The notes under the pieces were generated by a model, which saw only the letters and a program-made list of their open reading frames with translations, was not told the DNA's origin and searched no databases. Both the position numbers and the translations under genes were made by a program. A stretch of 64,000 nt of DNA, taken from NCBI GenBank assembly GCA_964016885.1, contig OZ024751.1, positions 44,516,001-44,580,000 on the forward strand. Reading direction: 5' to 3'. Origin of the DNA: Eledone cirrhosa. Its lineage: Eukaryota. This document shows, one piece after another, positions 6,912-61,174 of the stretch (position 1 is its first letter; each line of letters opens with the position of its first letter).

Positions 6912-7475
6912 TTCCCTGACGTCTATATTCACCCACATATTCATATAGGGTGTTAAACCCGTCACATCACATCACACTCATCATCTGGTTCTCTCTTATC
7001 ACGCTGCTTTACAATGGCTTCAAGATTTTAATACACAAAATCAACAAAAATAAATCCCCACACATTCATACACAAACACCATGAGAAATAAAGGGGAGAA
7101 AAAAACACAGCAACGAACAAAATTATGACATTTTCACGAAGTAGATAGTAAATAGCTCATAATTTCCTCATCAGAATCTACTTCCACAATTCTTCCTTCA
7201 CAATTGTCAATTGTATCATTACTGCTGCATCATACGACACACCTAGCAAGTTATACTAACATTTCCTTCGTTACAGCACACCCAAGGATTCGCGGAAAAA
7301 ATAAATAAATAACAAGCAAAAAGTTAAAAAATAATAATAAACAAAGCAATAAAATAAAACAAAAAAAAAAATGAAATGTTAGCATTATTCTTAATGTTAA
7401 TACCAATTGAATTTTACGCAACTTAATTATATCATTAGCACACATACATACACACACATTCATATATATTTACAG

Positions 7476-8066: not shown

Positions 8067-9463
8067 TATTTCTTTATTAGCCACAGGGCCACAAAAGAAG
8101 GGGACAAATACAAAGGAGGAAGTTTACATACAATAAAAACGTGTAAAATATTATCACAAATGCAATTTAAAAATTAATCGATTTTTCCCCAATAGGGGGA
8201 GACAGTTCATATGGGTAACACATACCACCGAAAAAAAAATGTGCAACCCTCATCTCCAGGAGTACGAAGAGTTTGTACTCCTTTCCTCTCCTCTTTTTCC
8301 TCAACCTACAGGCTGATATAGAGAGAAGGTCCATTCACTCGGGCCATTCTCACCACTTTCACCCATCTTTCATAAAACTTGCTGGGGTACAGCACCTCTC
8401 TCTCCATCCTGATTCTTCTTCCAAAGTGGAAAAAAAGAATCATTTGTTGGCCGGAGAGAAAGGTGTCTGACCTCAGCCCTTTCAACATTGTCCACCATAC
8501 AACCTCTTTCGCCATAGCTATCACACAAAAGAAAATCGCCTCTCCTTCGTTTTTGAAGGATGGTGGCGGTTTGATCATGACAATGGACTCGGTGGTCAAC
8601 TGGATTGGTCCCACTCGCGACAATAGTCGTTCTACATAGCCCCACAGGTCGGTGACGCCCGGGCAGTGTATGAATGCGTGCGCGACGGTTTCTTCGTCTC
8701 GCACGCACCTCGGACAGATCTTTTTTGCAGGGTCCCTGTCCGGGCGCCCATGTCTGTAGAGCTTGTCTCGAACTGGTAGAGCTCCTCGGTAGCACTGCCA
8801 GGCCAGGGAGTTTTGGAAGTTGTCCATCGGTCCCGGGCGGAAGGTCCTACCGAACAGACTGGCCAGTTCGTCTTCCTCTACGCCCAGAGTTTCACCGAGC
8901 GCGTCGTCGCACTTGCTGCGGACCAACCCTCTATAGAATGACGAAGTGGAGACTCCACTGATCGCCGGGTCCGCCTGCCAGAGGGCTGTGAGCGCCTGAG
9001 CACATTCGATGTGCCAGTCGCCCATTTTCCTCGGTCTTTGCTTGACCCAGGACTGCAGCTCGGTCAGCGAGACGAGTCGTGGGAAGGCTCGCCTCACGAA
9101 CGGGGCCCACACCGGTTGTCCGGTGAGGAATACGTAGAGATGCCGCAGCCTGAGCACGTGTTTGCGCATCGTCAGCCACGGCATCCCCAGCCCTCCGTTG
9201 GAAGGGCGTTGGCAGCAGATGGATCTTCTCACCAAAGGAGCCCGCCTCTTCCAAAGGAATTGGAAGAGCGCATGCTCCATTTTGGCGAGCGTTTTGGCTG
9301 GACAAGGCACGACGGTCAAGCGGTAGTAGATGGCGGACGCTATAAAAGTGTTCGCCATCTCCACTCGACCTTTCAAGTATAGTTTGCACTCGGTTCACTT
9401 CTGGGTGAGTGCAAACACCTTGGCCGACACCTCGTTCCAGTTCTTCTCCACCTGGAGGTCCGG
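8067..9463 (-). mobile_element. L1/Tx1-type LINE, 5'-truncated diverged subfamily copy (ORF2 C-terminus with CCHC-like motif CPRC..ETVAHAFIHC)
   Basis: ORF 8306-9376 is homologous to the C-terminal third of ORF 28147-31608 (GGLGMP, ALPVR, CPRC). Both ends abut GATA repeats. Confidence 0.9.
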
Positions 9464-9552
9464 ATAGATACATAGATACTATATCATATAAAACACATGG
9501 TCTTTCCATTGCTGATACTATCTACCGGTTGCAATTCATTGCAGATAGTGCA

Positions 9553-16377: not shown

Positions 16378-16379
<2 letters not shown>

Positions 16380-16985
16380 TGGCTGCCAACTCGTTTTCGA
16401 GTACGGCCACTACTTTATATCCATGTAGGAGAACCCCTACCGATGCGCTGAACGAGTGTGACTTTTTAGTCCAGCCAGCGACTTGAAAACTCTGGTACAA
16501 ACACTACACTTGTGACAATTACTGACACATAGTGCTGGGCCCATGGTACCATGTGACGACAAGTGCAGAGAGATCTCCAGATATAAAACAATGCCTGTGC
16601 CGTGAAGCTTTTATAGTGAGCAAAGGCACTGCACAAAGCCAGTCCCACTCTCTTAACCAAGATGATATTTACCAAAAAGAAGAACAACTCAACATCATTG
16701 GATACCATCAGGGTTGCAGGTGTTATATCAGAGTTTTCCTTCTCCTAGAATTCTGCCTTGACGAAGGCTAAGGGGTCATCTCTCCCGGTGATTTTGGATG
16801 GCCATTAACTCTTAAGAGCTCCTTTGCCCTTTGACAGGTTTTGTTTTTAGTCCTGCAGGATGTCCAAAGTCACCCTCCTCACCAAGAAACCTTGGTGGGG
16901 TTGCCAGTTTAGTCGCCAACGGCCCGACCATGAGACAGGTTGTACTGGGATACATGTTACCAGTAGCACCAACTGGTGACCTAAC
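16378..16985 (-). mobile_element. ~600-bp non-autonomous interspersed repeat with RTE-5'UTR-like motif (GGAGAAGGAAAACTCTGA)
   Basis: Near-identical inverted copy at 46427-46995; both end at GCAGCCACC followed by (AT)n. Confidence 0.75.
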
Positions 16986-17459: not shown

Positions 17460-17700
17460 ATAATAATAAATTTGAAGACTAAAATCCAAAGAGGGCTCGA
17501 TAAGGATAAATATATATCAAATATATAAGAACCGTAGTGCAAATATTTATTAAAATAACAGATTAAAGTTTAAGCAAAGAATCGCTGCTTTCACCCTTAA
17601 CGGGATCTTCTGCGTTTACAGATTGACTTTGTTAGTTTCAGAAGATCCCGTTAAGGGTGAAAGCAGCGATTCTTTGCTTAAACTTTAATCTGTTATTTTA

Positions 17701-17708
<8 letters not shown>
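17457..17708. mobile_element. (TA)n-embedded Penelope-like remnant with 70-bp inverted arms (17543-17612 / 17639-17708) containing an HHR-like core variant
   Basis: CAGAAGA-TCCC-GTTAA-GGGT-GAAA-GCAGCG in each arm; 26-nt spacer. Confidence 0.6.
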
Positions 17709-17744
<36 letters not shown>

Positions 17745-17747
<3 letters not shown>

Positions 17748-17946
17748 GGAAAAAGTATGACCCCGGCGGCAGAGCTCAAGCCGTTTCGACGGCTATTTTT
17801 GGACAGAGTCCAGAAATAGCCGTCGAAACGGCTTGAGCTCTGCTGTCGGGGTCTTACTTTTTCCTATTTCCCACTCTACTACCCTAAGTATTGAGTACTC
17901 TGGTGCGTATGGTCCATCTGGTTCCTTACCACATTTCCTTCGTTAT
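17745..17946 (+). mobile_element. (TA)n-embedded fold-back mini-element, family A (palindrome 17745-17867 plus unique tail)
   Basis: Homologues at 23915-24098, 36485-36540 and 41306-41504. Confidence 0.8.
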
Positions 17947-17948
17947 AA

Positions 17949-18018
<70 letters not shown>

Positions 18019-18069: not shown

Positions 18070-18303
18070 AAAGGATAAAAAGGACGATTGATTATTCCTT
18101 CATTGCATTTATTGATAGGTAACGCGCGTTTCGCCACTGATCAGCTCAAGGTTCGATCTATATCGATCCTACCCGACTCAATAATCGGCAGCTCGATGGA
18201 CCCTCTTAAAATGCTATAGCTCTACACATCATCACAGAAGTGAACCTAAACATCGAGTGCTCACCCGGGTGAACCTGCAGTAACTCCTAGTTACACCCAC
18301 TGG
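18070..18303 (-). mobile_element. (TA)n-embedded mini-element with GCGAAACGCGCGT motif (Penelope-type)
   Basis: Diverged homologue on the + strand at 22366-22555. Confidence 0.6.
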
Positions 18304-18359
<56 letters not shown>

Positions 18360-18651
18360 AAAACAAATAACGAAACGAAATTAAATTTCGTTTCGTTTGT
18401 AACTCACTTTTGTATGACTGACGCTTAAACAATTAAGTTAAAAATGTACATCCACATATGTATACTGAAATACTAGTATGCATATGAATACACACACGTA
18501 TACATATGTAGATGTACCGAGTTTTTCACTGGTCACTTTACTGTGAGTGTCCAGCTATTCTGTATGTAAGCACACAGACAAACCGGTTTTTAGAGTCATA
18601 CTGGTTTTTGAGGAAACACCTTTCCTCTATTCTCCAGAAAGCCAGACAAGG

Positions 18652-18694
18652 AATATTGAACTAGTTTCGATGTTGTTACATCTCATCAGCAATA
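18652..18694 (-). ncRNA. minimal type I hammerhead ribozyme (5' strand of stem I partly clipped by the inversion junction)
   Basis: Minus strand: TATTG-CTGATGA-GATGT-AACA-ACATC-GAAA-CTAG-TT-CAATATT. Confidence 0.8.
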
Positions 18695-19054
18695 AAAACC
18701 GGTTTGTCTGTGTGCTTACATACAGAATAGCTGGACACTCACAGTAAAGTGACCAGTGAAAAACTCGGTACATCTACATATGTATACGTGTGTGTATTCA
18801 TATGCATACTAGTATTTCAGTATATATATGTGGATGTACATTTTTAACTTAATTGTTTAAGCGTCAGTCATACAAAAGTGAGTTACAAACGAAACGAAAT
18901 TTAATTTCGTTTCGTTATTTGTTTTTATCGTCTCCGTTGAACCGGTACGTACTCACGCTCTATGCAAATTAGTCTGCCCACTACTAATTTTCATAGAAAA
19001 AGCATATAACGATATGTGCTTTTACGATTCTCTAGAGAGGCCGGAAGATAGGTA

Positions 19055-19099
19055 AATATTGCTGATGAGATGTAACAACATCGAAACTAGTTCAATATT
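19055..19099 (+). ncRNA. minimal type I hammerhead ribozyme
   Basis: AATATTG (stem I) CTGATGA GATGT/AACA/ACATC (stem II) GAAA CTAG (palindromic stem III) TT CAATATT (stem I'). Confidence 0.9.
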
Positions 19100-19520
19100 C
19101 CTTGTCTGGCTTTCTGGAGAATAGAGGAAAGGTGTTTCCTCAAAAACCAGTATGACTCTAAAAACCGGTTTGTCTGTGTGCTTACATACAGAATAGCTGG
19201 ACACTCACAGTAAAGTGACCAGTGAAAAACTCGGTACATCTACATATGTATACGTGTGTGTATTCATATGCATACTAGTATTTCAGTATACATATGTGGA
19301 TGTACATTTTTAACTTAATTGTTTAAGCGTCAGTCATACAAAAGTGAGTTACAAACGAAACGAAATTTAATTTCGTTTCGTTATTTGTTTTTATCGTCTC
19401 CGTTGAACCGGTACGTACTCACGCTCTATGCAAATTGGTCTGCTCACTACTAATTTTCATAGAAAAAGCATATAACGATATGTCCTTTTACGATTCTCTA
19501 GAGAGGCCGGAAGATAGGTA

Positions 19521-19565
19521 AATATTGCTGATGAGATGTAACAACATCGAAACTAGTTCAATATT
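19521..19565 (+). ncRNA. minimal type I hammerhead ribozyme
   Basis: Identical to 19055-19099. Confidence 0.9.
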
Positions 19566-19841
19566 CCTTGTCTGGCTTTCTGGAGAATAGAGGAAAGGTG
19601 TTTCCTCAAAAACCAGTATGACTCTAAAAACCGGTTTGTCTGTGTGCTTACATACAGAATAGCTGGACACTCACAGTAAAGTGACCAGTGAAAAACTCGG
19701 TACATCTACATATGTATACGTGTGTGTATTCATATGCATACTAGTATTTCAGTATACATATGTGGATGTACATTTTTAACTTAATTGTTTATATATAATA
19801 TAATTATATATATATATACACACATATATATATATATATAG

Positions 19842-20960: not shown

Positions 20961-20962
<2 letters not shown>

Positions 20963-21648
20963 CGTCGATGAATTAGTTTTGCGAGGTTTTTTATATGAAA
21001 TCGTGTGTCGAAACAGATATTGTTATATTTGGGGAGGGTCATATTTGCGTAATATTGCCAGAATTAATAACAGAACACACTCACTGTTTGGTTGGTTTTC
21101 GCTTCTCGCTGTCTTTTATATATATATATCTGCGATCTAACTTACTCGGTCCTCAATGTTGCCATTGACTGACCGGCGGTCAAAAATAATACAGATACAA
21201 TATAGACAAACACATATATATATAGTTTACATAAATCTTTCGTTGCACATCTGCAACATCGTCAGTGGTGTTATATTCATTGTTCCTCCTGTTGTGTTGT
21301 ATGTCTACGCCATTTTTTTTGTTCTGTCTGTCTATATATAGACAGACTGAACAAAAAAAATGGCGTAGACATACAACACAACAGGAGGAACAATGAATAT
21401 AACACCACTGACGATGTTGCAGATGTGCAACGAAAGATTTATGTAAACTATATATATATGTGTTTGTCTATATTGTATCTGTATTATTTTTGACCGCCGG
21501 TCAGTCAATGGCAACATTGAGGACCGAGTAAGTTAGATCGCAGATATATATATATAAAAGACAGCGATAAGCGAAAACCAACCAAACAGTGAGTGTGTTC
21601 TGTTATTAATTCTGGCAATATTACGCAAATATGACCCTCCCCAAATAT

Positions 21649-21656
<8 letters not shown>
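20961..21656. mobile_element. (TA)n-embedded element family F as a ~640-bp palindrome (21017-21656) centred on GTC(TA)4GAC
   Basis: Arms are near-perfect reverse complements. Family members at ~19905-19975, 59557-59750, 59990-60055 and 62110-62440. Confidence 0.85.
21408..21441 (+). ncRNA. hammerhead-like core (mirror copy at 21232-21265 on -)
   Basis: CTGACGA-T-GTTGCA-GATG-TGCAAC-GAAA-GATTTA. Stem I is weak; stem II covaries with the homologue at 62185. Confidence 0.55.
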
Positions 21657-22200: not shown

Positions 22201-22365
22201 ATTGATTGTATGCTATGTATTTGCCAAATTATCCCTGACGCACTTCACCGACGTCTGTTAGAGATGCGGAGGGATGGTGTCAGTGATAAGGTCCCAGATA
22301 TGTGATGAAAGATTTACACATAAATATAAGATATTCTTTGTTAGTACTTAAACATATATATATAT

Positions 22366-22555
22366 CCAGGGAGGGTAACGTGGAGTTACTGTAGGTTCAT
22401 TCTATCATTACCACCAAAGAGGTCCGACGAGCCATTGTTTACAGAGTCGGCTAGATCGATACAGATCGAACCTTGAGCTGATCAATAGCGAAACGTGCGT
22501 CACCAACCAATACACGTAATGAATGAGTAACCATTCGTCTTTGTTTTATTTTATT
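22366..22555 (+). mobile_element. (TA)n-embedded mini-element with GCGAAACGTGCGTC motif
   Basis: Homologous to 18070-18303 (-). Confidence 0.6.
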
Positions 22556-22589: not shown

Positions 22590-22830
22590 GTAAAAGTAAA
22601 CAGAAATAATAACACAATCGCTACAGTATATTGAAGGTATATATTAGGTTAACGCTTGATATAGCAGGAAGAGGGACTTAATGTTTCGGACGCTAGTCCT
22701 TCACCAGAAGAAAGAATGAGAAATAAAATAGATTGAGGGGACGGGCGGGTTGGAATTGGAAAAAATGTCTTTAGATAAAAATAACAGGTCCATTCATGTT
22801 GACATCTCTTGCAAAACTGTAAAGAGAATT
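22590..22830 (-). mobile_element. Penelope-like 3' end (degenerate GIY-YIG tail + mutated HHR CTGGTGA..GAAAC)
   Basis: Translation KRCQHEWTCYFYLKTFFP resembles the R..E..(W)IF.LKT..P tail; homologous to 61036-61262. Confidence 0.65.
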
Positions 22831-23806: not shown

Positions 23807-24098
<292 letters not shown>

Positions 24099-28146: not shown

Positions 28147-31100
28147 CTATAGTCTGATGTAGAGTGAAGGCCCATTCACACGGGCCATTCTCGCCACTTT
28201 CACCCATCTTTCATAGAAACGGCTGGGGTGCAGCACCTCTCTCTCCATCCTGATCCTTCTTCCGAAATGATATCGGAAGAAACGGACCAGTTGTTGGCCA
28301 GAGAGAAAGGTGCCTGACCTCAGTCCTTTCAGACGCGTCCACCATACAACCTCTTTCGCCATGGCTATTACGCACAGAAACACCGCCTCTGCTTCATCTT
28401 TGAAGGGGGGAGGCGGCTTGATCATTACAATAGACTCGGTGGTCAACCGGATCGGTCCCACCCTTGACAGCAGTTGTTCGACATAGCCCCACAGATCGGC
28501 TGCGCCCGAGCAGTGTACCAATGCGTGTGCAACGGTTTCCTCGTCGCACACGCATCTGGGACAGATCTTTTTGGCGGGGTTCCTACCCGGGCGCCCGTGT
28601 CTGTAGAGCCTTTCTCGAACGGGTAAAGCCCCTCGGTAGCACTGCCAGGCCAGGGACTTCTGGAAGTTGTCCATAGGTCCCGGGCTGAATGTCCTACCGA
28701 ACAGGCTGGCCAGTTCGTCCTCCTCCATGTCTAGGGCTTCTCCGAGGGCGTCGTCGCACCTGCTGCGTACCAGCCCTCTATAGAATGTTGCGGTGGAGTC
28801 TCCACTGATAACCGGATCCGCCTGCCAGAGGGCGGTGAGCGCCTGGGCACACTCAGTGTGCCAGGCGCCCAGTTTTCTCGGTCTTTGCTTGACCCAGGAT
28901 TGCAGCTCGGTGAGTGAGACGAGTCTGGGAAAGGTTCGTCTCACAAACGAGGCCCACACCGGTTGTCCGGTGAGGAATACGTAGAGGTGCCGTAGCCTTA
29001 ATGCGTGTTTACGCATCATTAGCCACGGCATCCCCAGCCCTCCTTTCGAAGGGTGTTGACAGCAGATGGATCTCCTCACCATAGGAGCCCGCCTCTTCCA
29101 AAGGAATTGGAAGAGCGCGCGCTCCATCTTGGTGAGGGTTTCCCTTGGGCAGGGCACTACGGTCAGGCGGTAGTAGATGACGGACGCTATGTAGGTGTTC
29201 GCCACCTCCGCCCGACCTTTCAGGGATAGTTTGCAACTGGCCCACTTCTGGGTCAGTGCAAACACCCTGTTCGTAACCTCCGCCCAGTTTTTCTCCACCT
29301 GGAGGTCCGGTCCGAACCAGACCCCGAGCAACTTCACCGGGCCCTCCGTCCAGCGTCCGACGACGCCATCGGAGGGGATCGGTCTGCCCCTCCCCGTGCC
29401 GAGTTGCAAACCGATCGACTTGTCCCGGTTCAGCTTAGCCCCTGTGAACTTTTCGTACTCCTCCAGTAAGGTGCCGACCGCCTCGATTTCGGAGGCCGTC
29501 GACACCATTACTGTCACGTCATCGGCGTAGGCCGACACCGCTTTCCGCAATCCCGGTTCCAAAGGGATGCCCTGCAACAACTCCAACTTCCGCAGTAGTG
29601 GCTCGAGAGTCAACACATACAGAAGGGAGGAGAGAGGGCACCCTTGTCGGATGGACCGCGCGATTTTGAACGGCTCCGAGAGGTAGCCGTTCACCTTGAC
29701 CCTAGAGCAGATGCGGCTGCTGTGCATAGCAGTGATCCAGCCCCTGAAAACGGGTCCGAAGCCTGCCGCCGCTAGCACCGCATCCAGGTAACCATGGTCG
29801 ACCCTATCGAACGCCTTAGATTGATCCAAGTTGATCAGAGCCCCACCAAAGCCGGGTTCGTTCCCAACCCTCTCTATGATGTATCGCATGAGGTGGAGGT
29901 TGTCATGGATGGACCTGGACGGGATAGCGCATGACTGCGCATCTCCCACCAGGTTGCCCACGACAAGCGCCAACCTCTTTGCTAGCACCTTGGCCAAAAT
30001 CTGTAACTCTGTATTTAGCAGTGTTATGGGCCTGAAGTTACTTATTTCGTCCCCCTTGTTCTCGTCCTTCCTCACTAGCGTGACTACGCCCTTGGTCACA
30101 GTACAGGGAATTCTCCCGTTCTGTTGCCAGTTGCAGTAGACCACCTCGAGGAGATCGGGGAACAAGTCCGGCATAGCTAGATATAATTCGTAAGGAAGAC
30201 CATCGAGACCCGGGGATTTGCGTTTGCCGCATTGGCTCAGCACGTCCTCTATCTCAGCGGCCGAAATCGGCTCCTCGCAGGACTTCGCCTCCCTGTCCGA
30301 GAGGCGCGGCAGGCCGTCGAGGTATGGACCGAAGTCCACGTTCCCAACCGGCTCCCCGCCCCTCCCGAACAGTCGGGCAAAGTGCCTTTGAAAGGCCTCA
30401 CACATCTGCTTAGGCTCAAGAATCGCTCGTCCATCCAGGTCTCGCAAAGACCGGATGGTGGATTTAGTTCCACTGTTGGCCTCTGTCACGCGGGCCCAGC
30501 TAACAGCTTTGGTCCCCTCGTTCCCTCGAGCACGTATTTTACTTCGGACAACGCAGCCTTCGTGCTTCGCGTCGAAAAACTGGCTCAAAGCCGTTCTCGA
30601 CGCTAGCACTCTGGCCACGTCGCCGCTTCTAATTGCCTCTTCTACTCTATCTATTAGCTCCCTTTCCTTCCTATTCCTATCCGCAGCTAGAACCTTACTA
30701 AATTCTATCGAGACTACTCTAATCTCTCTCTTTAGAGATACCCACCACCTGCTGTTGACGATCGCTCCAGTCAACCGTTCCTTAACTAACGTACTAATCC
30801 GATTCCTGTAGGCTCTACTTGCCGGCAAGGACAAGTTGAGCTTCCAGTAACCGGGGCCCTGTCTATGAGTTCTGTCAAGGTTGACCATGCAGGTCACTAA
30901 TTTGTGGTCTGAATAGCCAACCATGCGCATTTTTGGACAACTTAAAAAGTCCTTATCCTTAATTCTAACTAAGAACCTATCTAGGTACGACCTAGATGAT
31001 CCGCTACGATTTGCCCAAGTCCAGGTTGGCGCAGTCGGAAAATCTAGTCGATATCTATCGGCCAGGTCAAATCGACCGATTAACCCTTTGAGGCTATTAC

Positions 31101-31584
31101 ACCCCTCTCTATCGGGGCAGGCCCCTACGTAGTCCCAGCGTGCATCTAGGATACCATTCCAGTCCCCCACTAATAGCAAGGAGCGGGTCGTCCCTAGAAA
31201 AGTCTCCAGACGATGGAAGAAGTCCGGCCGCATTGACCCGAAAGGGCCGTAGGCGGCTACCAACCTAAACGCTCCGCCTTTACCACTGCCAAGGTCCAGA
31301 ACCACTAGTCGACCCTCCGGGTCCAAATGTACCATCTGTGTTGCGAGACCCAGATATTTTTGCAGCAGAACGACAACTCCACCCCCGCCTCCGGGCTGAC
31401 AGAGAGATGCGTGCATCTCAAAGTCATCAAAGGTGGGGGCCAGCTGTCGCACGTTGCTGATCCGGGCCTCGCAAATAACCATCACATCTATACGTTGTGA
31501 CCTGAGGTCATTTAGAAGCATTGCTTGCTTCCAAGTTGAGCCCAGGCCACGCGCATTTAAACAGCCTACTCTTAGCATAGCCAT
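28147..31584 (-). CDS. ORF2p: APE endonuclease + reverse transcriptase + C-terminal Zn-knuckle-like motif (~1145 aa)
   Basis: CLNARGL, ICE, GDWN, SYLDRF, YSDH, GYWKLN, KSPGLDG, NFRPITLLN, LDQSKAFDRV, RQGCPLS, YADD, GGLGMP, CPRC..H...C. Uninterrupted; first ATG at 31584. Confidence 0.95.
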   Translation of the reverse strand: MAMLRVGCLNARGLGSTWKQAMLLNDLRSQRIDVMVICEARISNVRQLAPTFDDFEMHASLCQPGGGGGVVVLLQKYLGLATQMVHLDPEGRLVVLDLGSGKGGAFRLVAAYGPFGSMRPDFFHRLETFLGTTRSLLLVGDWNGILDARWDYVGACPDREGCNSLKGLIGRFDLADRYRLDFPTAPTWTWANRSGSSRSYLDRFLVRIKDKDFLSCPKMRMVGYSDHKLVTCMVNLDRTHRQGPGYWKLNLSLPASRAYRNRISTLVKERLTGAIVNSRWWVSLKREIRVVSIEFSKVLAADRNRKERELIDRVEEAIRSGDVARVLASRTALSQFFDAKHEGCVVRSKIRARGNEGTKAVSWARVTEANSGTKSTIRSLRDLDGRAILEPKQMCEAFQRHFARLFGRGGEPVGNVDFGPYLDGLPRLSDREAKSCEEPISAAEIEDVLSQCGKRKSPGLDGLPYELYLAMPDLFPDLLEVVYCNWQQNGRIPCTVTKGVVTLVRKDENKGDEISNFRPITLLNTELQILAKVLAKRLALVVGNLVGDAQSCAIPSRSIHDNLHLMRYIIERVGNEPGFGGALINLDQSKAFDRVDHGYLDAVLAAAGFGPVFRGWITAMHSSRICSRVKVNGYLSEPFKIARSIRQGCPLSSLLYVLTLEPLLRKLELLQGIPLEPGLRKAVSAYADDVTVMVSTASEIEAVGTLLEEYEKFTGAKLNRDKSIGLQLGTGRGRPIPSDGVVGRWTEGPVKLLGVWFGPDLQVEKNWAEVTNRVFALTQKWASCKLSLKGRAEVANTYIASVIYYRLTVVPCPRETLTKMERALFQFLWKRRAPMVRRSICCQHPSKGGLGMPWLMMRKHALRLRHLYVFLTGQPVWASFVRRTFPRLVSLTELQSWVKQRPRKLGAWHTECAQALTALWQADPVISGDSTATFYRGLVRSRCDDALGEALDMEEDELASLFGRTFSPGPMDNFQKSLAWQCYRGALPVRERLYRHGRPGRNPAKKICPRCVCDEETVAHALVHCSGAADLWGYVEQLLSRVGPIRLTTESIVMIKPPPPFKDEAEAVFLCVIAMAKEVVWWTRLKGLRSGTFLSGQQLVRFFRYHFGRRIRMEREVLHPSRFYERWVKVARMARVNGPSLYIRL

Positions 31585-31608
31585 GTTGGTGGTGAAGAGA
31601 AAAGGCAC

Positions 31609-36361: not shown

Positions 36362-36540
<179 letters not shown>

Positions 36541-36573
36541 AAATTCCAATACATATATATATACACACACACA

Positions 36574-36661
<88 letters not shown>

Positions 36662-37076
36662 CGTCAGAAACGTTAAGAGTTTTCCTACTATATAAAGTGT
36701 GAAACTAATATGTCTTTATTGTACTTCATAGCCTGTTGTGTTTTTTCCGTTTAATTTCCACACACACACACACAGATATATATATATATGTGTGTGTGTG
36801 TGTACGTGTACGCCTTTGTATGTGTGTGTGTGTGTTTGCATAAGTAATTTGAGTTATCCATGCATTACAATTGCGTTCATTAGATGTGTGTTTAACTCTA
36901 ATGACTCTAATGAAACCAACAGTAATGTCAATTCTCTTCCTCATTATGTGGTGATTGTCACTTCCAATTGTTTCTACCCACACCTATACACACACACACA
37001 TGTATATATGTATATATATATATGTGTGTGTGTGTGTGTATATATGTAGGTGTATATAAATGTATATATGCATACA

Positions 37077-37533
37077 CTGAGGATGAAGAACTCAGAGCTG
37101 TACGGGAGCGTCCCAAAAGTCAGCTCTAAAGTATCCCAGAGGAGATTGAGGTTAGCTGGACATGCTCACCGATAACCAGAGTTGATATTACGCTCAGTGC
37201 TTCTGTGGGAGCCCCTACACAGAGGAGACTGAGGTTAGCTGGACATGCTCACCGATAACCAGAGTTGATATTACGCTCAGTGCTTCTGTGGGAGCCCCTA
37301 CACAGAGGAGACTGAGGTTAGCTGGACATGCTCACCGATAACCAGAGTTGATATTACGCTCAGTGCTTCTGTGGGAGCCCCTGCATGGGCACACTGGAAG
37401 AGAAAGACCGAGGTTGACATATGTTGATGCCCTAAGGTCAGACACTGGTCTCTTGGAGGACATGGCAACGATGATGAGGGACAAAGACCACTGGAGAGAA
37501 CTTGCCCATGGATCTCGCGAATTTTACCCGCCC
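37077..37533 (+). mobile_element. RTE LINE 3' fragment with internal 83-bp triplication
   Basis: Homologous to 3412-3708 (LLWEPLHGH..EFYPP); units start at 37137, 37220 and 37303. Confidence 0.9.
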
Positions 37534-37725
37534 TATATATATATACATGGAAAGTTATATTTAAATTGTTGGGTTACAACTAGTAAATATTTATAACTGA
37601 TATAAAAGCACTCAACAAGTATTTGGAGTATATTTACGATATTAAATAATGCCATCAACTTTTCAAATACAAGTCGATGTTGAACGGTATGTCAAATCTA
37701 TTTATTTATAAAACTGTCTATATTG

Positions 37726-37817: not shown

Positions 37818-37864
<47 letters not shown>

Positions 37865-37903
37865 AGAGTATTGAAGTTTGCTTGAAGCATTGTGGAACAA
37901 TAA

Positions 37904-38089
37904 GTAAATATCTTTAAGTCGTTTGGAAGCCTCGACAATGCAAATGGGTAAATCTCCGGGTAACAAGGTCTGGTTGTGGAGAGAGAGATGTACACCCACT
38001 TACATATCTCTCTCCACCACCGGACCTTGTTACCCGGAGATTTATCCATTTGCATTGTCGAGGCTTCCAAACGACTTAAAGCTATTTAC
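37904..38089. repeat. 89-bp inverted repeat with 8-nt spacer between (TA)n tracts
   Basis: Arms 37904-37992 and 38001-38089 with a few mismatches. Confidence 0.9.
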
Positions 38090-39306: not shown

Positions 39307-39389
39307 GTGAGAGAGTATATCTTTATTTTATTATCTAAATGACATCTATAAGCCTCGGACTTTGAGTCATACGAGTCGAAAGTCTATGT

Positions 39390-40020
39390 GGATTGGCAGA
39401 ATCGTTAAAGCATTGGTCAGATGCTTAGTAGAATTCATTCCAGTGTTTTATGTTCTGTTCTGAGTACAAATCTCGCCAAGGTGAACTTTGCCTTTCATTC
39501 TTCTGAAGTTTGATAAAATAAACTTCAGGTAAATTACCGGAGTCGATTTAATCGTCTTCCCCTCACTCAAATTGCTAGCTCCTGATTGAGGTGTGAAGTT
39601 AGCAATTTGAGTGAGAGGAAGACAATTAAATCGACTCCGGTAATTTACCTGAGTGCTTTGTTATTTCTATTTAAAAAAAGGCGGTGGTTTTGCCTTTCAT
39701 CCTTACGGGGTCGATAAAATAAAGTACCAGTAATACACTGGGATAGTTGCTGGTCTTGTGCCAAAGGTAGAAACAATTATTTCTATTTTTAATAAGGCGG
39801 TGGATTGACAGTATCTGTAGAGAGTCGGACGCCATGCTTTCCAGCATAGTTACGTCCCTTTACGGTCTGAGTTCAAATCCCACCAAGGTTAACACTGCCT
39901 TTCATCCTTTCGGGGTCGATAAAATAAAGTACTAGTAACGGACTGGGGTCGATTTAATCGACTTTCCCCTCCCCCTAAATTACTGGCCTTGTGCCTATAC
40001 TAGAAATCATTATTTCTATG
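39390..40020 (+). mobile_element. cluster of tRNA-derived SINE copies
   Basis: B box GAGTTCAAATCCC followed by TTTGCCTTTCATCC..GGGGTCGATAAAATAAAGTAC; about three copies. Confidence 0.85.
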
Positions 40021-41305: not shown

Positions 41306-41310
<5 letters not shown>

Positions 41311-41504
41311 AACGAGTAGGACCCCGACGGCTGAGCTCAAGCCGTTTCGACGGCTAATTCTGGACAGTCCAGAATTAGCCGTCGAAACGGCTTGAGCTCA
41401 GCCGTCGGGGTCCTACTCGTTCCTATTACCCACTCTACTACCCTAAGAATTGAGTACTTTGGTGCGTTATGGTCCATCTGGTTCCTTACCACATTTCCTT
41501 CGTT
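41306..41504 (+). mobile_element. fold-back mini-element family A (perfect 60-bp-arm palindrome 41306-41426)
   Basis: Centre TGGAC-A-GTCCA at 41366; flanked by (TA)n. Confidence 0.85.
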
Positions 41505-41519
41505 ATATATATATATATA

Positions 41520-41599
<80 letters not shown>

Positions 41600-41615
41600 A
41601 TATATATATATTCAG

Positions 41616-41658
41616 ACCGAGCTGAAGATCCGCATAAAGGGAAACATTTGTTCTCGGT
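41616..41658 (+). ncRNA. type I hammerhead ribozyme in an ~80-bp insert between (TA)n tracts
   Basis: ACCGAG CTGAAGA TCCGCATAAAGG GAAAC ATTT GTT CTCGGT. 6-bp stem I; stem II weak. Confidence 0.65.
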
Positions 41659-41891
41659 ATGGTGAACTAACTGTTGTAGAACTACTTCTATATATATATA
41701 TATAGAGAGAGAGAGAGAAAGAGAGATGTATTTAATTATGTCTCATATAAAATAATACAACTGGCTATCCGCAAAATACGTATAGTTAGCACCCCAAACG
41801 TATAATTGTGATTATACTAAGGTATATCCTAATGTTTGTTGAGTGAGACGGAAGCCGGTCGGAGTATTGCTTAAAGCTTTCTCTGTTAATG

Positions 41892-42093: not shown

Positions 42094-42164
42094 TATTTTA
42101 TCTGACGAAAACGCAAATGTCATCGCATGATGATATTTGTTTTTGAAATGCGCATAATAAAATA
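42094..42164 (+). ncRNA. type I hammerhead ribozyme with long stem II, within element 41940-42290
   Basis: TATTTTAT CTGACGA AAACGCAAATGTCATC-GCAT-GATGATATTTGTTTTT GAAA TGCGCA TA ATAAAATA. Confidence 0.85.
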
Positions 42165-42314
42165 CATGGAACTCTTTTAAGCATCTTTTGATCTTATATT
42201 ATTTATACTCCAGTTCTACAAACTGTAGAGTGCTTCTTAGCCGATATCTGCATTGCTTTATTGTACTACAATAAAACTCACCTCCTACATTATATATATA
42301 TATATATATATATA

Positions 42315-42425
42315 GTAAAAAATTGAACGGGAACAAAACAGAGAGGTAGTACGAACAAAGGTTTATTAGTTTCACGCTCTTGAGAGTGGGGTGGTGGTGG
42401 GGAACGACGTTTCGGGCATAAGCCC

Positions 42426-42430
<5 letters not shown>
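42315..42430 (-). mobile_element. Penelope-like 3' end truncated inside the HHR core (..ATGAAGGGCTTATGCCCGAAACGTCG)
   Basis: Homologous to 48660-48915; joins (AT)n at the ATGA of the core. Confidence 0.7.
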
Positions 42431-46426: not shown

Positions 46427-46995
46427 AGTACAACCTGTCTCATGGTCGGGTCGTTGGCGACTAAACTGGCAACCCCACCAAGGTTTCTTGGTGAGGAGGG
46501 TGACTTTGGACATCCTGCAGGACTAAAAACAAAACCTGTCAAAGGGCAAAGGAGCTCTTAAGAGTCAATGGCCATCCAAAATCACCGGGAGAGATGACCC
46601 CTTAGCCTTTGTCAAGGCAGAATTCTAGGAGAAGGAAAACTCTGATATAACACCTGCAACCCTGATGGTATCCAATGATGTTGACTTGTTCTTCTTTTTG
46701 GTAAATATCATCTTGGTTAAGAGAGTGGGACTGGCTTTGTGCAGTGCCTTTGCTCACTATAAAAGCTTCACGGCACAGGCATTGCTATATATCTGGAGAT
46801 CTCTCTGCACTTGTCGTCACATGGTACCATGGGCCCAGCACTATGTGTCAATAATTGTCACAAGTGTAGTGTTTGTACCAGAGTTTTCAAGTCGCTGGTT
46901 GGACTAAAAAGTCACACTCGTTCAGCGCTTCGGTAGGGGTTCTCCTACATGGATATAAAGTAGTGGCCGTACTCGAAAACGAGTTGGCAGCCACC
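46427..46995 (+). mobile_element. second copy of the ~600-bp RTE-5'UTR-like non-autonomous repeat
   Basis: Reverse complement of 16378-16946. Confidence 0.75.
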
Positions 46996-47819
46996 ATATA
47001 TATATATACAGAGAGAGAGAGAGAGAGAGAGAGAGTGAGAGAGAGAGAGAGAGGGCGAGAGTGACGTAAATAGCAAGCAACAAACATCTCCAACTTTATA
47101 GCCATTAAAACTACACAACCAACACATAAAGTGTACTATATGAATCAAATACATAAAAACTATAAAACAGACGAACACATAATAATGAAATTTCTCATAA
47201 AACGTAACACAAAATACATCGTAGCAAGCCATAAATTATCAGTAATAATATGTACTACGAAAACTGTCAAATGAAATGTCTCTTTATTAACCAGAAGCCA
47301 TAAGTGTGTAAACCTGTAAATAATATGTTATACAAACCATCAATGTGATTTATAAATTCAATTTGATAAACATAGTTCACTTAACTCTTCTTCTTTATTT
47401 TCTTCATTTCTTCTAATACTACAAATAAATATGAAAATAATAAGAATAACAAACATCTCCAGAGTAGAAACAATGTCATTGAACTCTCAGATTGGTTATG
47501 TTCCTATCTCCAACATTAGTTCTATCTGTTGTAAAGAAATCTATTTCCAATCATAGTTGACTTTCTCCGACTGATTAATGTAATGTCATTTCTTTAGTAA
47601 GGTGACATTAGATAATATGTTCCTAGATAGACTATGTCATTGAGGAAATAAAAATGTCATAGGCCCGAGTGGAACATGTTTGATCATAATCCTGGGCTGA
47701 ATTTTGAAGCATGACAGAAAAGTAAATACTCCTGAGGGCATGGATGGAACGTCTTCAATTTAAACTTATTTCTTGACTGATTTAAGGCTAAGAAAATATA
47801 TAAGAACAACATAGATAAA

Positions 47820-48160
47820 AATAATGGTTTCTGATTTAACCACGAGACCACAAATTTTGGGAGAGGGGATAGTCGATTAAATAGACCCCAGTGTATTACT
47901 GGTACATTATTTTATCGACCCCTGGAAGGATGAAAGGCAAAGCTAACCTCGGCGGTATTTGAACTCAGAGCGTAAAGGGACGTAACTCTACACCGCAAAG
48001 TATATGATGTCCGATGCTCTACCAATACTATTAATCCACAAAAATAATTGTTTCTACTTTTGGCACAAGGCCAGCAATTACCCAGCACGTAAAGGGACGT
48101 AACTCTGTGCTGAAAAGCATGGCGTCCAACCCTCTACCGATACTACTTATCCACAAAAAT
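47820..48160 (-). mobile_element. tandem tRNA-derived SINE copies
   Basis: Reverse complement of the SINE core and head. Confidence 0.8.
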
Positions 48161-48593
48161 AATAACAATCATAATAACGACTACTGTGTCGAAATTGCTG
48201 ACAAAAGCAGTAGCAGAATGAGTAATTGTATCAAGAATAGTAGTAATAATATCAGTTCTTTACCAAAGAAACAATAAAGCAATGTCTGCACTTGCAAAAC
48301 AACGACGATAATAAGACATTAAAACAATGGCTACGTTGAGAACAATGGTCCAAGTGCACTAGACATATGATAAATGAAATAAATGTCTCAACGAAAAAGC
48401 ATCTGCAGAAGCAGTAAATGAGCCAAAAAAGAGAAGCAGGAGTGATTGTAAAATATATGACTGGTTGTATAAACAATAAAATACTATCACGAGTATAAAG
48501 AGAGAACGTTGAATTTTACCCAATTATACGGATGGCTATGGAGAATCTGACGTCAGTTTGATTTCAGTAACGGAGCAAACATAAAAATATATG

Positions 48594-48753: not shown

Positions 48754-48784
48754 CTGATGAAGGGCTTATGCCCGAAACGTCGTC
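48754..48784 (+). ncRNA. hammerhead core in Penelope-like remnant 48660-48915
   Basis: CTGATGA-A-GGGC-TTAT-GCCC-GAAAC-GTC-GTC; no convincing stem I. Confidence 0.55.
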
Positions 48785-49753: not shown

Positions 49754-50067
49754 GTAAGCGGCGAATGAGGTTTGGGATCTTTTCAATTGATTCAACCCAA
49801 CTCCTAATAGCTTAATGAAGGCGGTGAATTGGCAGAACGTTACGTCATATGACATATTTCGTAGAGTTACGTAATCAGTGTTGGTGTAAAACTCTGTGAC
49901 GTCACGGTGAAACAATATTTCATTGACATTGGAGCTAAACAGGAAGTAATAATAATATACGTAAAATAATTCAGTATTTAACTTCATCAGCCGGAATTCC
50001 TAACAATATAATTTGATTGGGAAGTTCCATTCTTGGCATTAACAACAACAATAACAACCCTAATAAA

Positions 50068-51040
50068 ATAATTGTTTCTACTTTTGGCACAAGGCCAGCA
50101 ATTACCTCAGTGCATTACTGGTACTTTATTTTATCGACCCCGTAAGGATGAAAGGCAAAGTTAACCTCGGCGAGATTCGGACTCAGAACGTAAAGGGCCA
50201 TAACTCTATCCGGCAAAGCATGGTGTCTGACCCTCTATCGATAAGCCCTAACAAAATAATAATAATAGATTCAAAGCACTTAGCCGGTATCTGGGAGATA
50301 CATGGTTCAATCCCTTATAGCGGTCGATGACAACTATTTTTTCCGTCTTTAAGGGTTTTCACCTTATTTTATTAAATATTTATAGCATCTCTACCAATGA
50401 GCACACCACTCTTTATACGAAGAATTATAATTATTATTATTATCTCTACTTTTAGGGCGGTGGATTGGCAGTATTGGTAGAGAGTCGGACACCATGCTTT
50501 GCAGCATAGAGTTACAGCCCTTTACGGTCTGAGTTCAAATCCTGCCGAGATTAACTTTGCCTTTCATCCTTACGGGGTCGATAAAATAAAGTACCAGTCA
50601 CGCACTGGGGTCGATTTAATCAACGTTTCCCTCCCCCCAAATTACTGGCCTTGTGCCTATATAAGAAACCATTATTATCTCTACAGGGCGGTGGATTGGC
50701 AGTATCGGTAGAGGGTCGGACGCCATTCTTTGACGTATAGAGTTACGGCCCATTGCCATTCTGAGTTCAAATCCCGCTGAGGTTAACTTTGCCTTTCATC
50801 CTTACGGGGTCGATAAAATAAAGTACCAGTAATGCACTGGGTAATTGCAGGCCTTGTGCCTAAAGTAGAAACAATTATTATTATCTCTACTTTTGACACA
50901 AGGCCAGCAATTTAAAGGGACCCCAGTGTGTGACTGGTACTTTGCTTTCTTGACCACGTAAGGATGAAAGACAAATTAACCTCGGTAGGATTTGAGCGTA
51001 AATAGCCTGTATACCGCAATAGTATTTTATCCGACACCCG
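50068..51040. mobile_element. SINE cluster: 50068-50255 (-), tandem 50455-50880 (+), 50885-51040 (-)
   Basis: A-box-like TGGCAGTATCGG, B box GAGTTCAAATCC, shared core, (ATT)n tails. Confidence 0.85.
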
Positions 51041-53829: not shown

Positions 53830-54210
53830 ATATCGATAGAGATTCGGACACCATGTTTTGCAGCATAGAGTTATGGCCCTTTACGGTCTGAGTTCGAATC
53901 CCGCCGAGGTTAACTTTGCCTTTCATCCTTACGAGGTTGATGAAATAAAGTACCAGTCATTCACTGGGGTCGATTTAATCGACTTTCCCCTCCCTCCCAA
54001 AATTGCTGGCCTCGTGCCTATATAAGAAACCATTATTTAACCATATATGCTTTGACGTATAGAGTTACGGCCCTTGCCATTCTGAGTTCAAATCCCGCCG
54101 TGGTTAACTTTGCCTTTCATCCTTTACGGGGGGGGGGGTCGATAAACTAAAGTACCAGTAATACACTGGGGTAATTGCTGGCCTTGTGCCAAAAGTAGAA
54201 ACAATTATTT
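53830..54210 (+). mobile_element. tandem tRNA-derived SINE copies
   Basis: GAGTTCGAATCCC B box and SINE core twice. Confidence 0.85.
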
Positions 54211-55057
54211 AACCATATATGTCGAGGATTTCTCGAACTTGGTGAAACAGTTAACACACACACACACTCTCTCTCTCTCACTCTCTCTCTCTCACACACA
54301 CACACCCACACAAAATCAAACACACATCCCCACACACACTTATACCAGGGGTGGTGGAAGCATTTCTGAAATGGGGAGGGGGGGTCCAAATTTAGTCAAT
54401 TTAGTTGTAGTGATTAGTCTAGCTCTTTGTACTCTAAAATGGTCAGAAAACTTCGATATGCGATAAACATAACATGTACATAAATTGTAGTGCATATCCA
54501 AATAGATGTGTGTTTTGGTAGTTTGGGGAGAAAGTATAATTATGGGGGGTGGGGGCTGCCCTGGTCCCCCAGTTCCACCGCCCTGCAAACACACATACAC
54601 ACACACACACACACATGAATAAGATAATCGTTTGGGCAAGTTTACGGCAAGTCAAAAAACTGATTGACAGACAGCTAAATATAGATGCTGACAGACGTAA
54701 AACAACAGACATACTGACAGACAGACAGACAGACAGACGTGCAGGCAGTCAGACTGACACACGGGGAGACAGATGGAAACGATAACATTAAACGATATTT
54801 AATATCTGTGACCAAAATATTAGCACAAGTGGCTCATAGTTTCTTTGGAAAGAGAAAAGAGAAAATAAACAAAAACAAAAACAAAAACAAAAACAAAAAA
54901 AACACACACTAACAAACTAAAAACAAAACCTCATTTGAGATTAGAGGAAATTAAAGGCACTTGAGTAGTTCTCGTTGATTAGCTTTCTCTGTCATGTTTT
55001 TAAATCATATGGCAGGTCGGGACCTCATTAACTTACTTTTTTTTATCGCTTTGTCAG

Positions 55058-55369: not shown

Positions 55370-57520
55370 TGAAGGAGCGTAGTTTAATGGTTACGGTGTT
55401 CAGCTCCCGAACGTAATGTCGTGAGTTCGGTTCCCGGATCGAACAGCAGCCTGTGTCCTTCAGCAAAACAATTTATTTAACGTTACTTCAGTCAACTCAG
55501 ATATCAAAATGAGTGGGCCTGTAATTCAAATGTCCAGCTATGTCACACTCTGTGATACACCGAATCTCACTGAGAACTACGGTAATGGTTCACGTTTTTG
55601 TGAGATGCTCAGTCACTTGCACGTTCATTTCACAATCAGGCTATTACGTCGATCACCTCAGACGGAAAGCTCGTCAAATATATAATTACCACACCGAGAT
55701 ATGAATTTATTATTAGAGTTAATAAAATAAGTTCGAACTCCGCCGAGGTTAGCTTTGCCTTTCATCCTTACGGGGTCGATAAAATAAAATACCAGTAATG
55801 CACTAAGGTTGATTTAATAGACTACCATCTTCCCCCCACCAAAAAAACAGCAACATTGTTGGCCTTATGCCTATAGTAGAAATCATTATTTGAGTTAGTA
55901 ATGGGGATTCTACGAGCTGGCTTGATCTGCTAGCAATAACTTTCAAACCAAACTCTACTCTCCTGACCTATGAAACACTACACCAGAAGGTTTATCTTGA
56001 TCCGCAACGAATTTTTGAAAATAATTTTTTGAAAAGCCACACTAATGTTTGGGCGTCTTGAAACATGTCATTCCTAATTCCATTATACACAAGTGTGATT
56101 GTTAAAAGAAGGAATGTAATAATATTTTTCGACATTTAAGAGGTTAATTTGATAGGATAAAATAACATTACTGTATTTCTTCTGAATCATTACATTCTGA
56201 GTTCAAATCCCACCGAGGTCAACTTTGCCTTTCTTAATTCCGGGGTTGATAATTAAAACACCAGACAAGTACTTTGCTCTACTCCAAATCTGCTGGCCTT
56301 GTGCCTAAATTAAAAATCAATATTTTACAAATTAAAAAAATCTTTTAAATGTCATTTATTTTCCTTTCCAAGCGAAAGACATCAGTAATTTTTTTTCATT
56401 TGATCTCCAGTGTGACACAATGTCACACTGGAGAGCCATTGCCTTTTTGTCTTAAAAAGACAAATTAGATAGTAGTCCTAGATATATTGCACCTTAAAAC
56501 AAACTTATAGCATGATCAAGACTAGAACGGACCTCATTAATTATAACTCTGCTCAAGTAAAGTGTTTTTTTAAATAATTGTTTCTACTTTTGGCACAAGG
56601 CCAGCAAATAACCAGTACATTACTGGTACTTTATTTTAAGGATGAAAGGGAAAGTTAACCTCGGCGGGATTTGAACTGAGAAAGTGTTTTTTTAAATAAT
56701 AACCATAGCTGACCAAAAAGTTATCTGTGAACCTTGGAATAAAAATTCATTGACTGCCTAGTTATTTATGACTCCCCCTGTATTTAGAATCGGGAGATGT
56801 AACGGACCCATATCATAACAATGGATCGGGGATTTATTCCATTGTACATGATTGAATCTTAGTTTCAATTGATATGATAATTCTGCAATTGTTGGCCCTA
56901 ATCTCGTCCGATGAGTTGAAAGAATAAATAAAATAATTGTTTCTACTTAAGGCACAAGGCCAGCAATTATCGCAGTGTATTACTGGTACTTTATTTTATC
57001 GACCCCGTAAGGATGAAAGGCAAAGTCAACCTCGGCGGGATTTGAACTCAGATCGTAAAGGGACGTAACTATGCTGGAAAGCATGACGTCCGACCTTCTA
57101 AAAATAATGGAAAAGCACAAGAAAGAACGTGATAAACCTAGAATTTAACCCGAAATTTGGCACATTCTCGCTGATAACGCTGTACATTGATCGAAGACTC
57201 AGGCAAGTGATAGGCCTCATGTCACTTATTTTGTCAAATAAGAACCAGATATGATTTTAAAAAAAACTGATAACGGTAGGGGATTTTTTGTCGTTGTTTT
57301 ATTATTTTAATTTTTTTATTTTTACTTGCGAATAATGGTTTAAAAAAAATATATTTCTATTTTCATTGTGTAGACGGCTAATTTGTAGATTCATTAGAAC
57401 ATCCTATGTTCTAATGAATGTTTTGCGGTGTTGACTCTGAGTTCAAATCCTGCCGAGGTCAAATTTGCATTTCACCTCATCGAGGTCGATAAAAATGTAC
57501 CAGTGTCGTATTAGGGTCGA
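55370..57520. mobile_element. scattered SINE copies (55370-55675 +, 55733-55890 +, 56195-56320 +, 56575-56680 -, 56932-57105 -, 57435-57520 +)
   Basis: Match the two SINE families found elsewhere in the window. Confidence 0.75.
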
Positions 57521-59170: not shown

Positions 59171-59244
<74 letters not shown>

Positions 59245-59250
<6 letters not shown>

Positions 59251-59480
59251 AGGAGGTGAGTTTTATTGTAGTACAATAAAGCAATGCAGATATCGGATAA
59301 GAAGCACTCTACAGTTTGTAGGACTGGAGTATATATAATATATAAGATCAAAAGATGGTTAAAAGAGTTCCATGTATTTTATTATGCGCATTTCAAAAAC
59401 AAATATTATTGCATGATGATATTTGTTTTTGAAATGCGCATAATAAAATACATGGAACTCTTTTAACCATCTTTTGATCT

Positions 59481-59494
<14 letters not shown>
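59245..59494 (-). mobile_element. fold-back copy of the 41940-42290 element (palindrome 59331-59494)
   Basis: Symmetry centre GCAT at 59411-59414 is the stem II loop of the HHR at 42094-42164. Confidence 0.85.
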
Positions 59495-60119
<625 letters not shown>

Positions 60120-61138: not shown

Positions 61139-61174
61139 TCTTCTGATGAAGGACTAGCGTCCGAAACGTTAAGA
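61139..61174 (+). ncRNA. minimal type I hammerhead ribozyme in Penelope-like 3' end 61036-61262
   Basis: TCTT CTGATGA A GGAC-TAGC-GTCC GAAACGTT AAGA; palindromic AACGTT stem III. Confidence 0.75.

Follow-up and report, generated by a model that had tools for sequence, protein, structure and literature searches.

The window, a 64,000-nucleotide stretch of the Eledone cirrhosa genome, holds three verified, asymmetric palindromes of a short repeat, here called family A, at 17 kb, 24 kb and 41 kb. Each is an inverted, 5′-truncated copy joined head to head with a second one, a form taken by three of the four family A copies in the window, and in each the extra nucleotides lie on one arm only. We consider family A likely to be the 3′-terminal stub of a Penelope-like retroelement (PLE) or a non-coding PLE derivative, and hold a PLE-type origin with good confidence. 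Our main reading of the palindromes, to which we give a probability of about 0.45–0.5, is that they may be built at insertion by priming from both cut strands (twin priming). The parts of the four copies are as follows.

41306..41365, minus strand: short (tail-less) arm of the third copy, matching the long arm over all 60 nt; CCTAT runs into (TA)n
41366..41505, plus strand: long arm of the third copy, from the AGTCC 5′ edge, mirrored to 41426, then a tail to CGTTA
41427..41505, plus strand: one-sided tail of the third copy, 79 nt, between the two 3′ ends, delimited by arm comparison
17745..17804, minus strand: short arm of the first copy, from arm comparison
17805..17945, plus strand: 3-nt spacer and long arm of the first copy, with the tail at 17868-17945
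23915..24049, minus strand: long arm of the second copy, starting with AGAAATA, without GTCC, with the tail at 23915-23993
24050..24098, plus strand: short arm of the second copy, starting with GCCGTC
36486..36546, minus strand: solo copy with the short 3′ end only

The mirrored arms span 17745-17804 and 17808-17867 at 17 kb (60 nt each, 3-nt spacer AGA), 23994-24042 and 24050-24098 at 24 kb (49 nt each, 7-nt spacer) and 41306-41365 and 41367-41426 at 41 kb (60 nt each, 1-nt spacer). Their inverted-repeat scores are 42, 44 and 58, respectively, whereas 100 dinucleotide-block shuffles of each gave no score above 9. The predicted common end of the short arm, merging with (TA)n, is borne out, with CCTAT in all three palindromes. 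The long arms run 78–79 nt past the mirrored part, to CGTTA, and all seven family A 3′ ends in the window enter (TA)n. The 5′ reach of the tailed arm equals or exceeds that of the short arm, the excess being 8 nt at 24 kb and 1 nt at 41 kb. A direct tandem (pLTR) is absent at the four family A loci of the window and is seen in family C only; this feature is optional in truncated copies.

The copies had also been expected to share one fold-back point. This holds at 17 kb and 41 kb, where both fold at the AGTCC edge within 1–2 nt, but not at 24 kb, where neither GGAC nor GTCC is present and the arm starts, CAGAAAT and GCCGTC, are shifted inward by about 3 and 11 nt. The fourth copy exists as a solo copy at 36486-36540, with the short 3′ end only and ..ATTT upstream of AGTCC, although its 3′ end reads CATAT instead of the anticipated TCCTAT. 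This CATAT variant is carried by 737 of 14804 reads. A 15-nt match at 7259-7273 was dropped as a family A member, as there is no likeness beyond the 15 nt.

A family-wide view was obtained by placing four public runs on window positions 17790-17946. Two are raw-read RAD libraries (X17 and X18) and one is a contig set (X1), organism A; the fourth is a contig set from organism B (X5). X1 may derive from the source of the window itself; X17 and X18 are other samples, from a different study. Family A reads number 21,222 of 12.5 million in X17 and 21,911 of 12.8 million in X18, and five family A contigs in X5 show that a relative carries the family too. The family is very abundant and about 140 nt long; its 5′ edge is sharp, and its 3′ end takes two alternative positions. 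At the proximal end, 17867, 3622 reads (X17) and 3448 reads (X18) exit into (AT)n, which is the loose-end consensus there in three of the four runs, while depth at the distal end, 17946, is 8190 (X17) and 9014 (X18). The 5′ edge is seen in X17 as a rise in depth, from about 475 over 17802-17807 to about 12,400 over 17820-17825. Before 17807 and 17817 the loose ends show mixed sequence (agreement 0.42–0.51), and those before 17807 finish in ATTT in all four runs, which is also what the 36 kb copy reads there. An upstream TACCAGG motif is common to the X1 consensus and one X5 contig, and together with the ATTT ends this indicates that some family A members are longer; the upstream motif has no occurrence in the window.

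Joints between opposite strands are also found in the reads. Among the joints listed, 14 of 15 connect opposite strands, with different breakpoints, and in 13 of those 14 one side falls at 17805-17813 while the partner side lies anywhere from 17810 to 17908. One junction, with a single base between two AGTCC edges, occurs in up to 50 X1 contigs. Palindromic reads are scarce, with at least 248 X17 reads in the opposite-strand joints listed, and depth over the centre of the 17 kb palindrome is about 15–19 as against about 13,000 in the core, though three of the four window copies are palindromic. Hairpins are lost in short-read libraries, and this is the likely reason for the scarcity. The same scarcity would also follow if the palindromes were artefacts of assembly or library preparation, i.e. 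fold-back chimeric reads, a reading further favoured by the identity of the 41 kb arms. We consider this extremely improbable, since four positions differ between the arms at 17 kb and one at 24 kb, the ends fall at family-specific sites in six families, and identical opposite-strand joints appear in two libraries of raw reads from different samples, with several again in the contigs of a third run.

Variants in both arms of a copy had been described as private to that copy. They are in fact subfamily markers, found in 5–70% of reads. In X17 the GAAT letter of the 41 kb copy is carried by 496 of 3821 reads (13%), its other letters by 7378/12970 (57%), 4058/12542 (32%), 3777/12442 (30%) and 8725/12441 (70%), and two letters of the 24 kb copy by 645/12505 (5%) and 1054/12325 (9%). 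The expected pairing of arms by locus is seen in two of the three copies: own-arm differences are 0/49 at 41 kb and 1/49 at 24 kb, but the 17 kb short arm differs at 3/49 positions from its own long arm and likewise at 3/49 from the 24 kb long arm. Outside the centre, the two arms of the 17 kb copy show four differences, which does not favour the proposal that the arms were homogenised afterwards.

Because these variants mark subfamilies, their sharing between arms does not prove that a palindrome is formed at each insertion, and this part of the original prediction survives in a weaker form. The window junctions differ from one another and the opposite-strand joints in the reads are varied, from which we conclude that inversions arose many times independently. 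An alternative is that the palindrome itself is the copied master, one founding palindrome per subfamily, or that gene conversion later evened out the arms. The subfamily markers are compatible with such a master, and the one-base AGTCC-AGTCC junction recurring in up to 50 contigs is what it would produce; a fixed stall site, however, would give a recurring junction too. With three junctions in the three window copies, 14 different opposite-strand joints among those listed, and 17 kb arms that have drifted apart at four positions, we regard a copied master or conversion as improbable.

Family A is not alone in its layout. The window holds 22 local inverted matches, of which nine bounded by (TA)n were retained and 13 dropped (four internal to family C, three AT-rich and of low identity, and six tied to a dispersed SINE-like repeat, without (TA)n bounds). 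The retained pairs are the three of family A and those of families B (17.5–17.7 kb), C (18.4–19.8 kb), D (21 and 59.6 kb), G (38 kb) and E (59.4 kb). The features of the neighbouring families are listed here.

17518..17708: family B, with a tail-less plus-strand arm bearing a complete hammerhead fold and a tailed minus-strand arm starting at the core
18357..19791: family C, an inverted copy and 466-nt tandem units, with hammerheads at 18689 (minus), 19062 (plus) and 19528 (plus)
20961..21656: family D, a 632-nt palindrome with a hammerhead core in both arms and a 56-nt one-sided tail
37863..38089: family G, a palindrome with a 41-nt one-sided extension and no hammerhead core seen
42094..42290, plus strand: family E, a non-palindromic copy with a full type I hammerhead (at 42102) and tail, from fold inspection
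59244..59495: family E palindrome, centred on the stem II loop GCAT, with the tail on the minus-strand arm

In all nine (TA)n-bounded pairs, from six families, the extension is found on one arm only, and no pair is tail-less on both arms. Seven of these pairs were measured; that of family C and the 59.6 kb copy of family D were read from the match listings. Extension lengths are 25 nt or more (B), 69 nt (C), 56 nt (D), 41 nt (G) and 86 nt (E). The two D copies differ in where the short arm stops, which is earlier at 59.6 kb than at 21 kb. If ends were chosen independently, nine of nine would be expected with a probability of at most 0.5^9 = 0.002, or 0.016 when counted by family. The one-tail asymmetry thus points to a coupled choice of ends, e.g. 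one RNA copied twice. Most families have short ends that read TAT or are rich in TA.

Hammerhead cores are found in B, C, D and E, all of the other families but G. The tailed arm begins inside the ribozyme in B, C and E, and about 70 nt upstream of it in D. The full hammerhead of family E has a stem I of 8 bp, a stem II of 16 bp and a palindromic stem III. In the copy at 59330-59495 the fold-back lies in the stem II loop, with CTGACGA lost and the loop native in the tail-less plus-strand arm; the suggestion that these repeats fold back in a hammerhead stem II therefore fits family E, in its 59 kb copy, but is not supported for family A. In family B the 26-nt spacer is the 5′ strand of stem I of the tail-less arm. 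An Rfam search of the whole window gave, among the matches listed (150 of 261), HH9 only at 19044 and 19510, at 36.5 bits, below the HH9 gathering score of 52. As side observations, the conserved core U4 is replaced by A in both arms of the family B fold (17626-17693), whose stem I is extended and carries a bulge, and each unit of family C carries a minimal hammerhead with a palindromic stem III, resembling a non-LTR retrozyme with PLE-type ends.

What a mechanism has to account for is thus observed: the palindromes, the two ends, the 5′ edge, the many junctions and the neighbours built alike. For twin priming we propose that a PLE reverse transcriptase/GIY-YIG protein would cut both strands of a (TA)n run, as PLE biochemistry suggests. 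One strand would then prime cDNA at the distal start (CGTTA) and the other at the proximal start (CCTAT), and because these starts are 78–79 nt apart only one arm would gain the tail. After a short run both cDNAs may meet a structured region, probably hammerhead-derived, and stall there, which is our proposed reason why copies begin around AGTCC/AGCCGTC. Head-to-head joining of the two cDNA ends, across a few bases, could follow. Both arms would come from one RNA, or from one active subfamily, and so would share subfamily variants. Priming from a single strand alone would leave solo stubs, such as the 36 kb copy. The accessible text of PMC11167929 reports that both strands are cut and extended by a purified anole PLE protein, for which a dimer is predicted, and that this protein starts at two internal sites which bound the tail.

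A different route to the same structure is snap-back, in which the tailed cDNA of the same PLE-type stub stalls, folds on its 3′ hairpin and copies itself outward. The new copy would end at CCTAT through annealing to a (TA)n overhang or through an endonuclease cut. This is the route of the original prediction, and it is close to the self-priming at palindromic junctions already proposed for Penelope elements in a rotifer study (PMC3846280, in the part available), a precedent in print that speaks for it. The arms that are identical or nearly so within a locus at 41 kb and 24 kb also fit, as do the short ends that are TAT or TA-rich in most families, the tailed arm of family A, whose 5′ reach is never less than that of the short arm, and the family E copy that folds back in a native stem-loop.

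The two routes are separated by the sequence at the junction. Snap-back copies the tailed cDNA onto itself, so the native junction sequence must then sit on the tailed arm. In families B and E it sits on the tail-less arm, as the native spacer (B) or loop (E). On this sequence comparison the B and E junctions, one copy each, favour twin priming over simple snap-back, which cannot produce either of them. Family A itself permits both routes, and families C and D are uninformative. Two further points count against snap-back: the solo 36 kb copy also uses the short end, yet none of the nine pairs is doubly tail-less, and no native hairpin is seen at the family A junction, where the upstream sequence reads ..ATTT. 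We therefore consider snap-back rather unlikely.

Twin priming can be extended into a more specific scheme, which we offer tentatively and hold to be doubtful in its entirety. Here the inverted copy and the one-sided tail would arise when one RNA is copied twice by two protomers, with one start site per cut strand. The tail-less copy would lead, the tailed copy would stall inside the hammerhead, and the stems of the ribozyme would supply the joint. The half-ribozyme of family A would result from a stall at stem II, and the several very abundant stub families of this genome would record the rule thousands of times over.

Short, non-coding, high-copy repeats with inverted arms and TA flanks may also be MITEs, or fold-back DNA transposons inserting at TA, or SINE-like elements of an unrelated LINE, and AP-endonuclease LINEs do occur in the window. 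MITEs are defined by terminal inverted repeats at both ends, which family A does not have: the inverted arms are not terminal, one end carries 78–79 unmatched nucleotides and the termini differ. Solo one-armed copies exist, the junctions vary, and the layout recurs in hammerhead-bearing families. Either origin is in our view very improbable.

The layout of family A is, on the other hand, well known from PLEs. Published elements show an inverted, 5′-truncated copy, a tail at one end and a (TA)n target (PMC8557442 and PMC3846280, in the parts available). The 2021 supplement of PMC8557442, as far as accessible, lists PLE families of which nearly all target (TA)n and have a hammerhead near the 3′ end, and one of its entries has a 5′-truncated inverted copy attached. 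By eye, motifs listed there resemble the C-GAAA/stem III/cleavage layout of family A described below, and the cores of B and D. Unlike those listed PLEs, family A has no ORF and, here, no CTGANGA half, and its tail is 78–79 nt long compared with the 30–40 nt reported for PLEs in the available part of the same paper. Naiad PLEs, as described there, are similar in their (TA)n bias, heavy 5′ truncation, inverted truncated copy and one-sided tail. Like family A they have no canonical hammerhead, and in eight Naiads the core halves are 35–50 nt apart; a second core half at this distance from the family A GAAA was not found in the available sequence. Naiads are defined in that text by a protein with an N-terminal GIY-YIG, and none was found with family A in the window.

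The PLE assignment draws on the layout and the neighbours, because no coding partner was found. The family A copies contain no ORF, a regular-expression search for the GIY-YIG motif in six frames of the window gave no match, and pattern scans of viral, metagenome and genome contigs returned no loci (0) with other family A members. The family A motifs are absent from the supplements of PMC8557442 and PMC13282606. By analogy, family A would work like the end of a Hydra- or Naiad-type PLE, a comparison that leaves it without a clade assignment as long as it has no coding partner.

Penelope and Poseidon elements, as available in PMC3846280 and PMC11167929, offer a further likeness with their head-to-head inverted pLTRs, palindromes at the junctions and an optional tail on one arm, which is delimited by two start sites of reverse transcription. 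There the pLTRs measure 200 nt and belong to coding elements of low copy number, whereas family A consists of bare stubs in very high copy number. Their target duplications are readable, in contrast to family A, where both flanks are (TA)n and duplications are unreadable. Non-LTR retrozymes are, like family A, non-coding, hammerhead-linked and proposed to derive from PLEs, according to the accessible part of bioRxiv 10.64898/2026.07.22.740005. They are built of tandem units with complete hammerheads, and family A is neither tandem nor complete; family C fits the description given there. For LINE-1, twin priming is established: both target ends prime cDNA, with a 5′ inversion as the outcome (10.1101/2024.12.14.628481, in part).

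In LINE-1 twin priming the two pieces copy different parts of one RNA, unlike family A, both arms of which copy the same part. In the titles and abstract openings that we searched, with the subscription literature largely outside the search, no proposal of twin priming for PLE inversions was found; this is weak evidence of novelty.

Whether family A derives from a hammerhead is a separate question. The GGAC..GTCC hairpin had been taken as stem II, followed by GAAA-TAGCCG-TC. This reading is unsupported because GGAC is only the mirror copy of GTCC and non-palindromic members read ..ATTT before AGTCC. The GAAA of this parse is preceded by A and reads GAAT in both 41 kb arms, where no stem III is found. 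The lost CTGANGA half that was to lie upstream did not turn up: none is present within 30 nt in the listed loose-end consensuses before 17807 and 17817, and a CUGANGA core 5′ of stem II is absent in all four window copies.

A second GAAA, preceded by C, is invariant in all seven arms, and opens a stem III of 5–6 bp followed by GUC (an NUH site). At 41 kb it is located as follows.

41383..41410, plus strand: putative hammerhead-like 3′ half, with C, then GAAA at 41384-41387, and a 6-bp stem III closing at T41405

In this half C41406 would be the cleavage base, with GGGG after it. The G10.1-C11.1 pair is conserved in hammerheads, which need a C before GAAA (PMC4209133, in the part available). 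Judged from the sequence, the second parse (C-GAAA, stem III, GUC) would be better than the first, and by eye it fits the Hydra-clade layout in the accessible portion of File S2 of PMC8557442. It would predict a missing 5′ half consisting of CCCC, CTGANGA and then a strand complementary to AAATAGCCGTC. No such 5′ half was found in the window copies or the listed loose ends, a competing hairpin can form around the second GAAA, and no covariation was seen in the stem. A type II parse, with the core 3′ of the cleavage site, was set aside on inspection, having neither CTGANGA nor a stem I hairpin.

None of the 47 Rfam matches over 17547-17950 is a hammerhead; the microRNA matches, many of them sub-threshold, merely reflect hairpins. 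Upstream of 17807, the 30 letters of X5 contig 9 begin with CTATTT, which is complementary to the AAATAG of family A. This could be a single hint of a long native stem about 30 nt upstream. We put a hammerhead origin of family A at about even odds, and do not class it as a ribozyme.

In one sense family A is one more short PLE-type repeat with a layout already known, and its extra sequence on one arm likely records how the pair was built. The origin of tandem and inverted PLE structures is posed as an open question in the available part of PMC8557442, and the in vitro PLE study, to the extent accessible, stops before the second-strand steps and does not take up inversions (PMC11167929). Should the one-tail rule hold genome-wide, together with the side on which native junction sequence lies, twin priming can be told apart from self-priming by sequence alone. 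Such stubs also pass for MITEs or microRNA hairpins in automatic tools. Penelope-like families have been counted in an octopus, and structures of this kind are not described in the accessible part of that study (PMC13282606).

The window is rich in microsatellites (15% masked by a simple filter), and AP-endonuclease LINE ORFs are present. An open frame of 1153 aa at 28147-31608 (minus) has endonuclease, reverse transcriptase and zf-RVT parts and is L1/Tx1-like by layout. Copies of this LINE lie at 12255-13649 and 8306-9521, and the copy at 11994-13649 is 99% identical, which suggests recent activity. A broken LINE at 1358-3723 has endonuclease-like and reverse transcriptase frames (RVT_1 match at 2525-3289), and its 3′ part recurs as tandem pieces at 37072-37547. 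A 569-nt repeat is found at 16378-16946 and 46427-46995, 98% identical and mutually inverted, with one end on (TA)n. An abundant SINE-like repeat, often nested or inverted, occupies 39388-39987, 47819-48163, 50065-50995, 53831-54221 and 55730-57504, and includes a 128-nt hairpin at 39525-39652.

Several further hammerhead-like sequences were also observed. A small, complete-looking hammerhead with stem I ACCGAG/CTCGGT and core CTGAAGA follows the family A copy at 41 kb directly (41601-41690), in an insert of 80 nt that is flanked on both sides by (TA)n. Family F has a minimal hammerhead at 48754 (plus) and 42330-42428 (minus), and its 42.4 kb copy is cut inside the core and continues as (TA)n. 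A diverged pair (79%) at 18077-18310 (minus) and 22350-22545 (plus) has GAAA, a palindromic stem III and, about 60 nt further upstream, what may be a degenerate core; this may represent a hammerhead with a long insert in stem II. A two-copy family at 61143 (plus) and 22592-22815 (minus), 94% identical over 224 nt, has a minimal hammerhead core.
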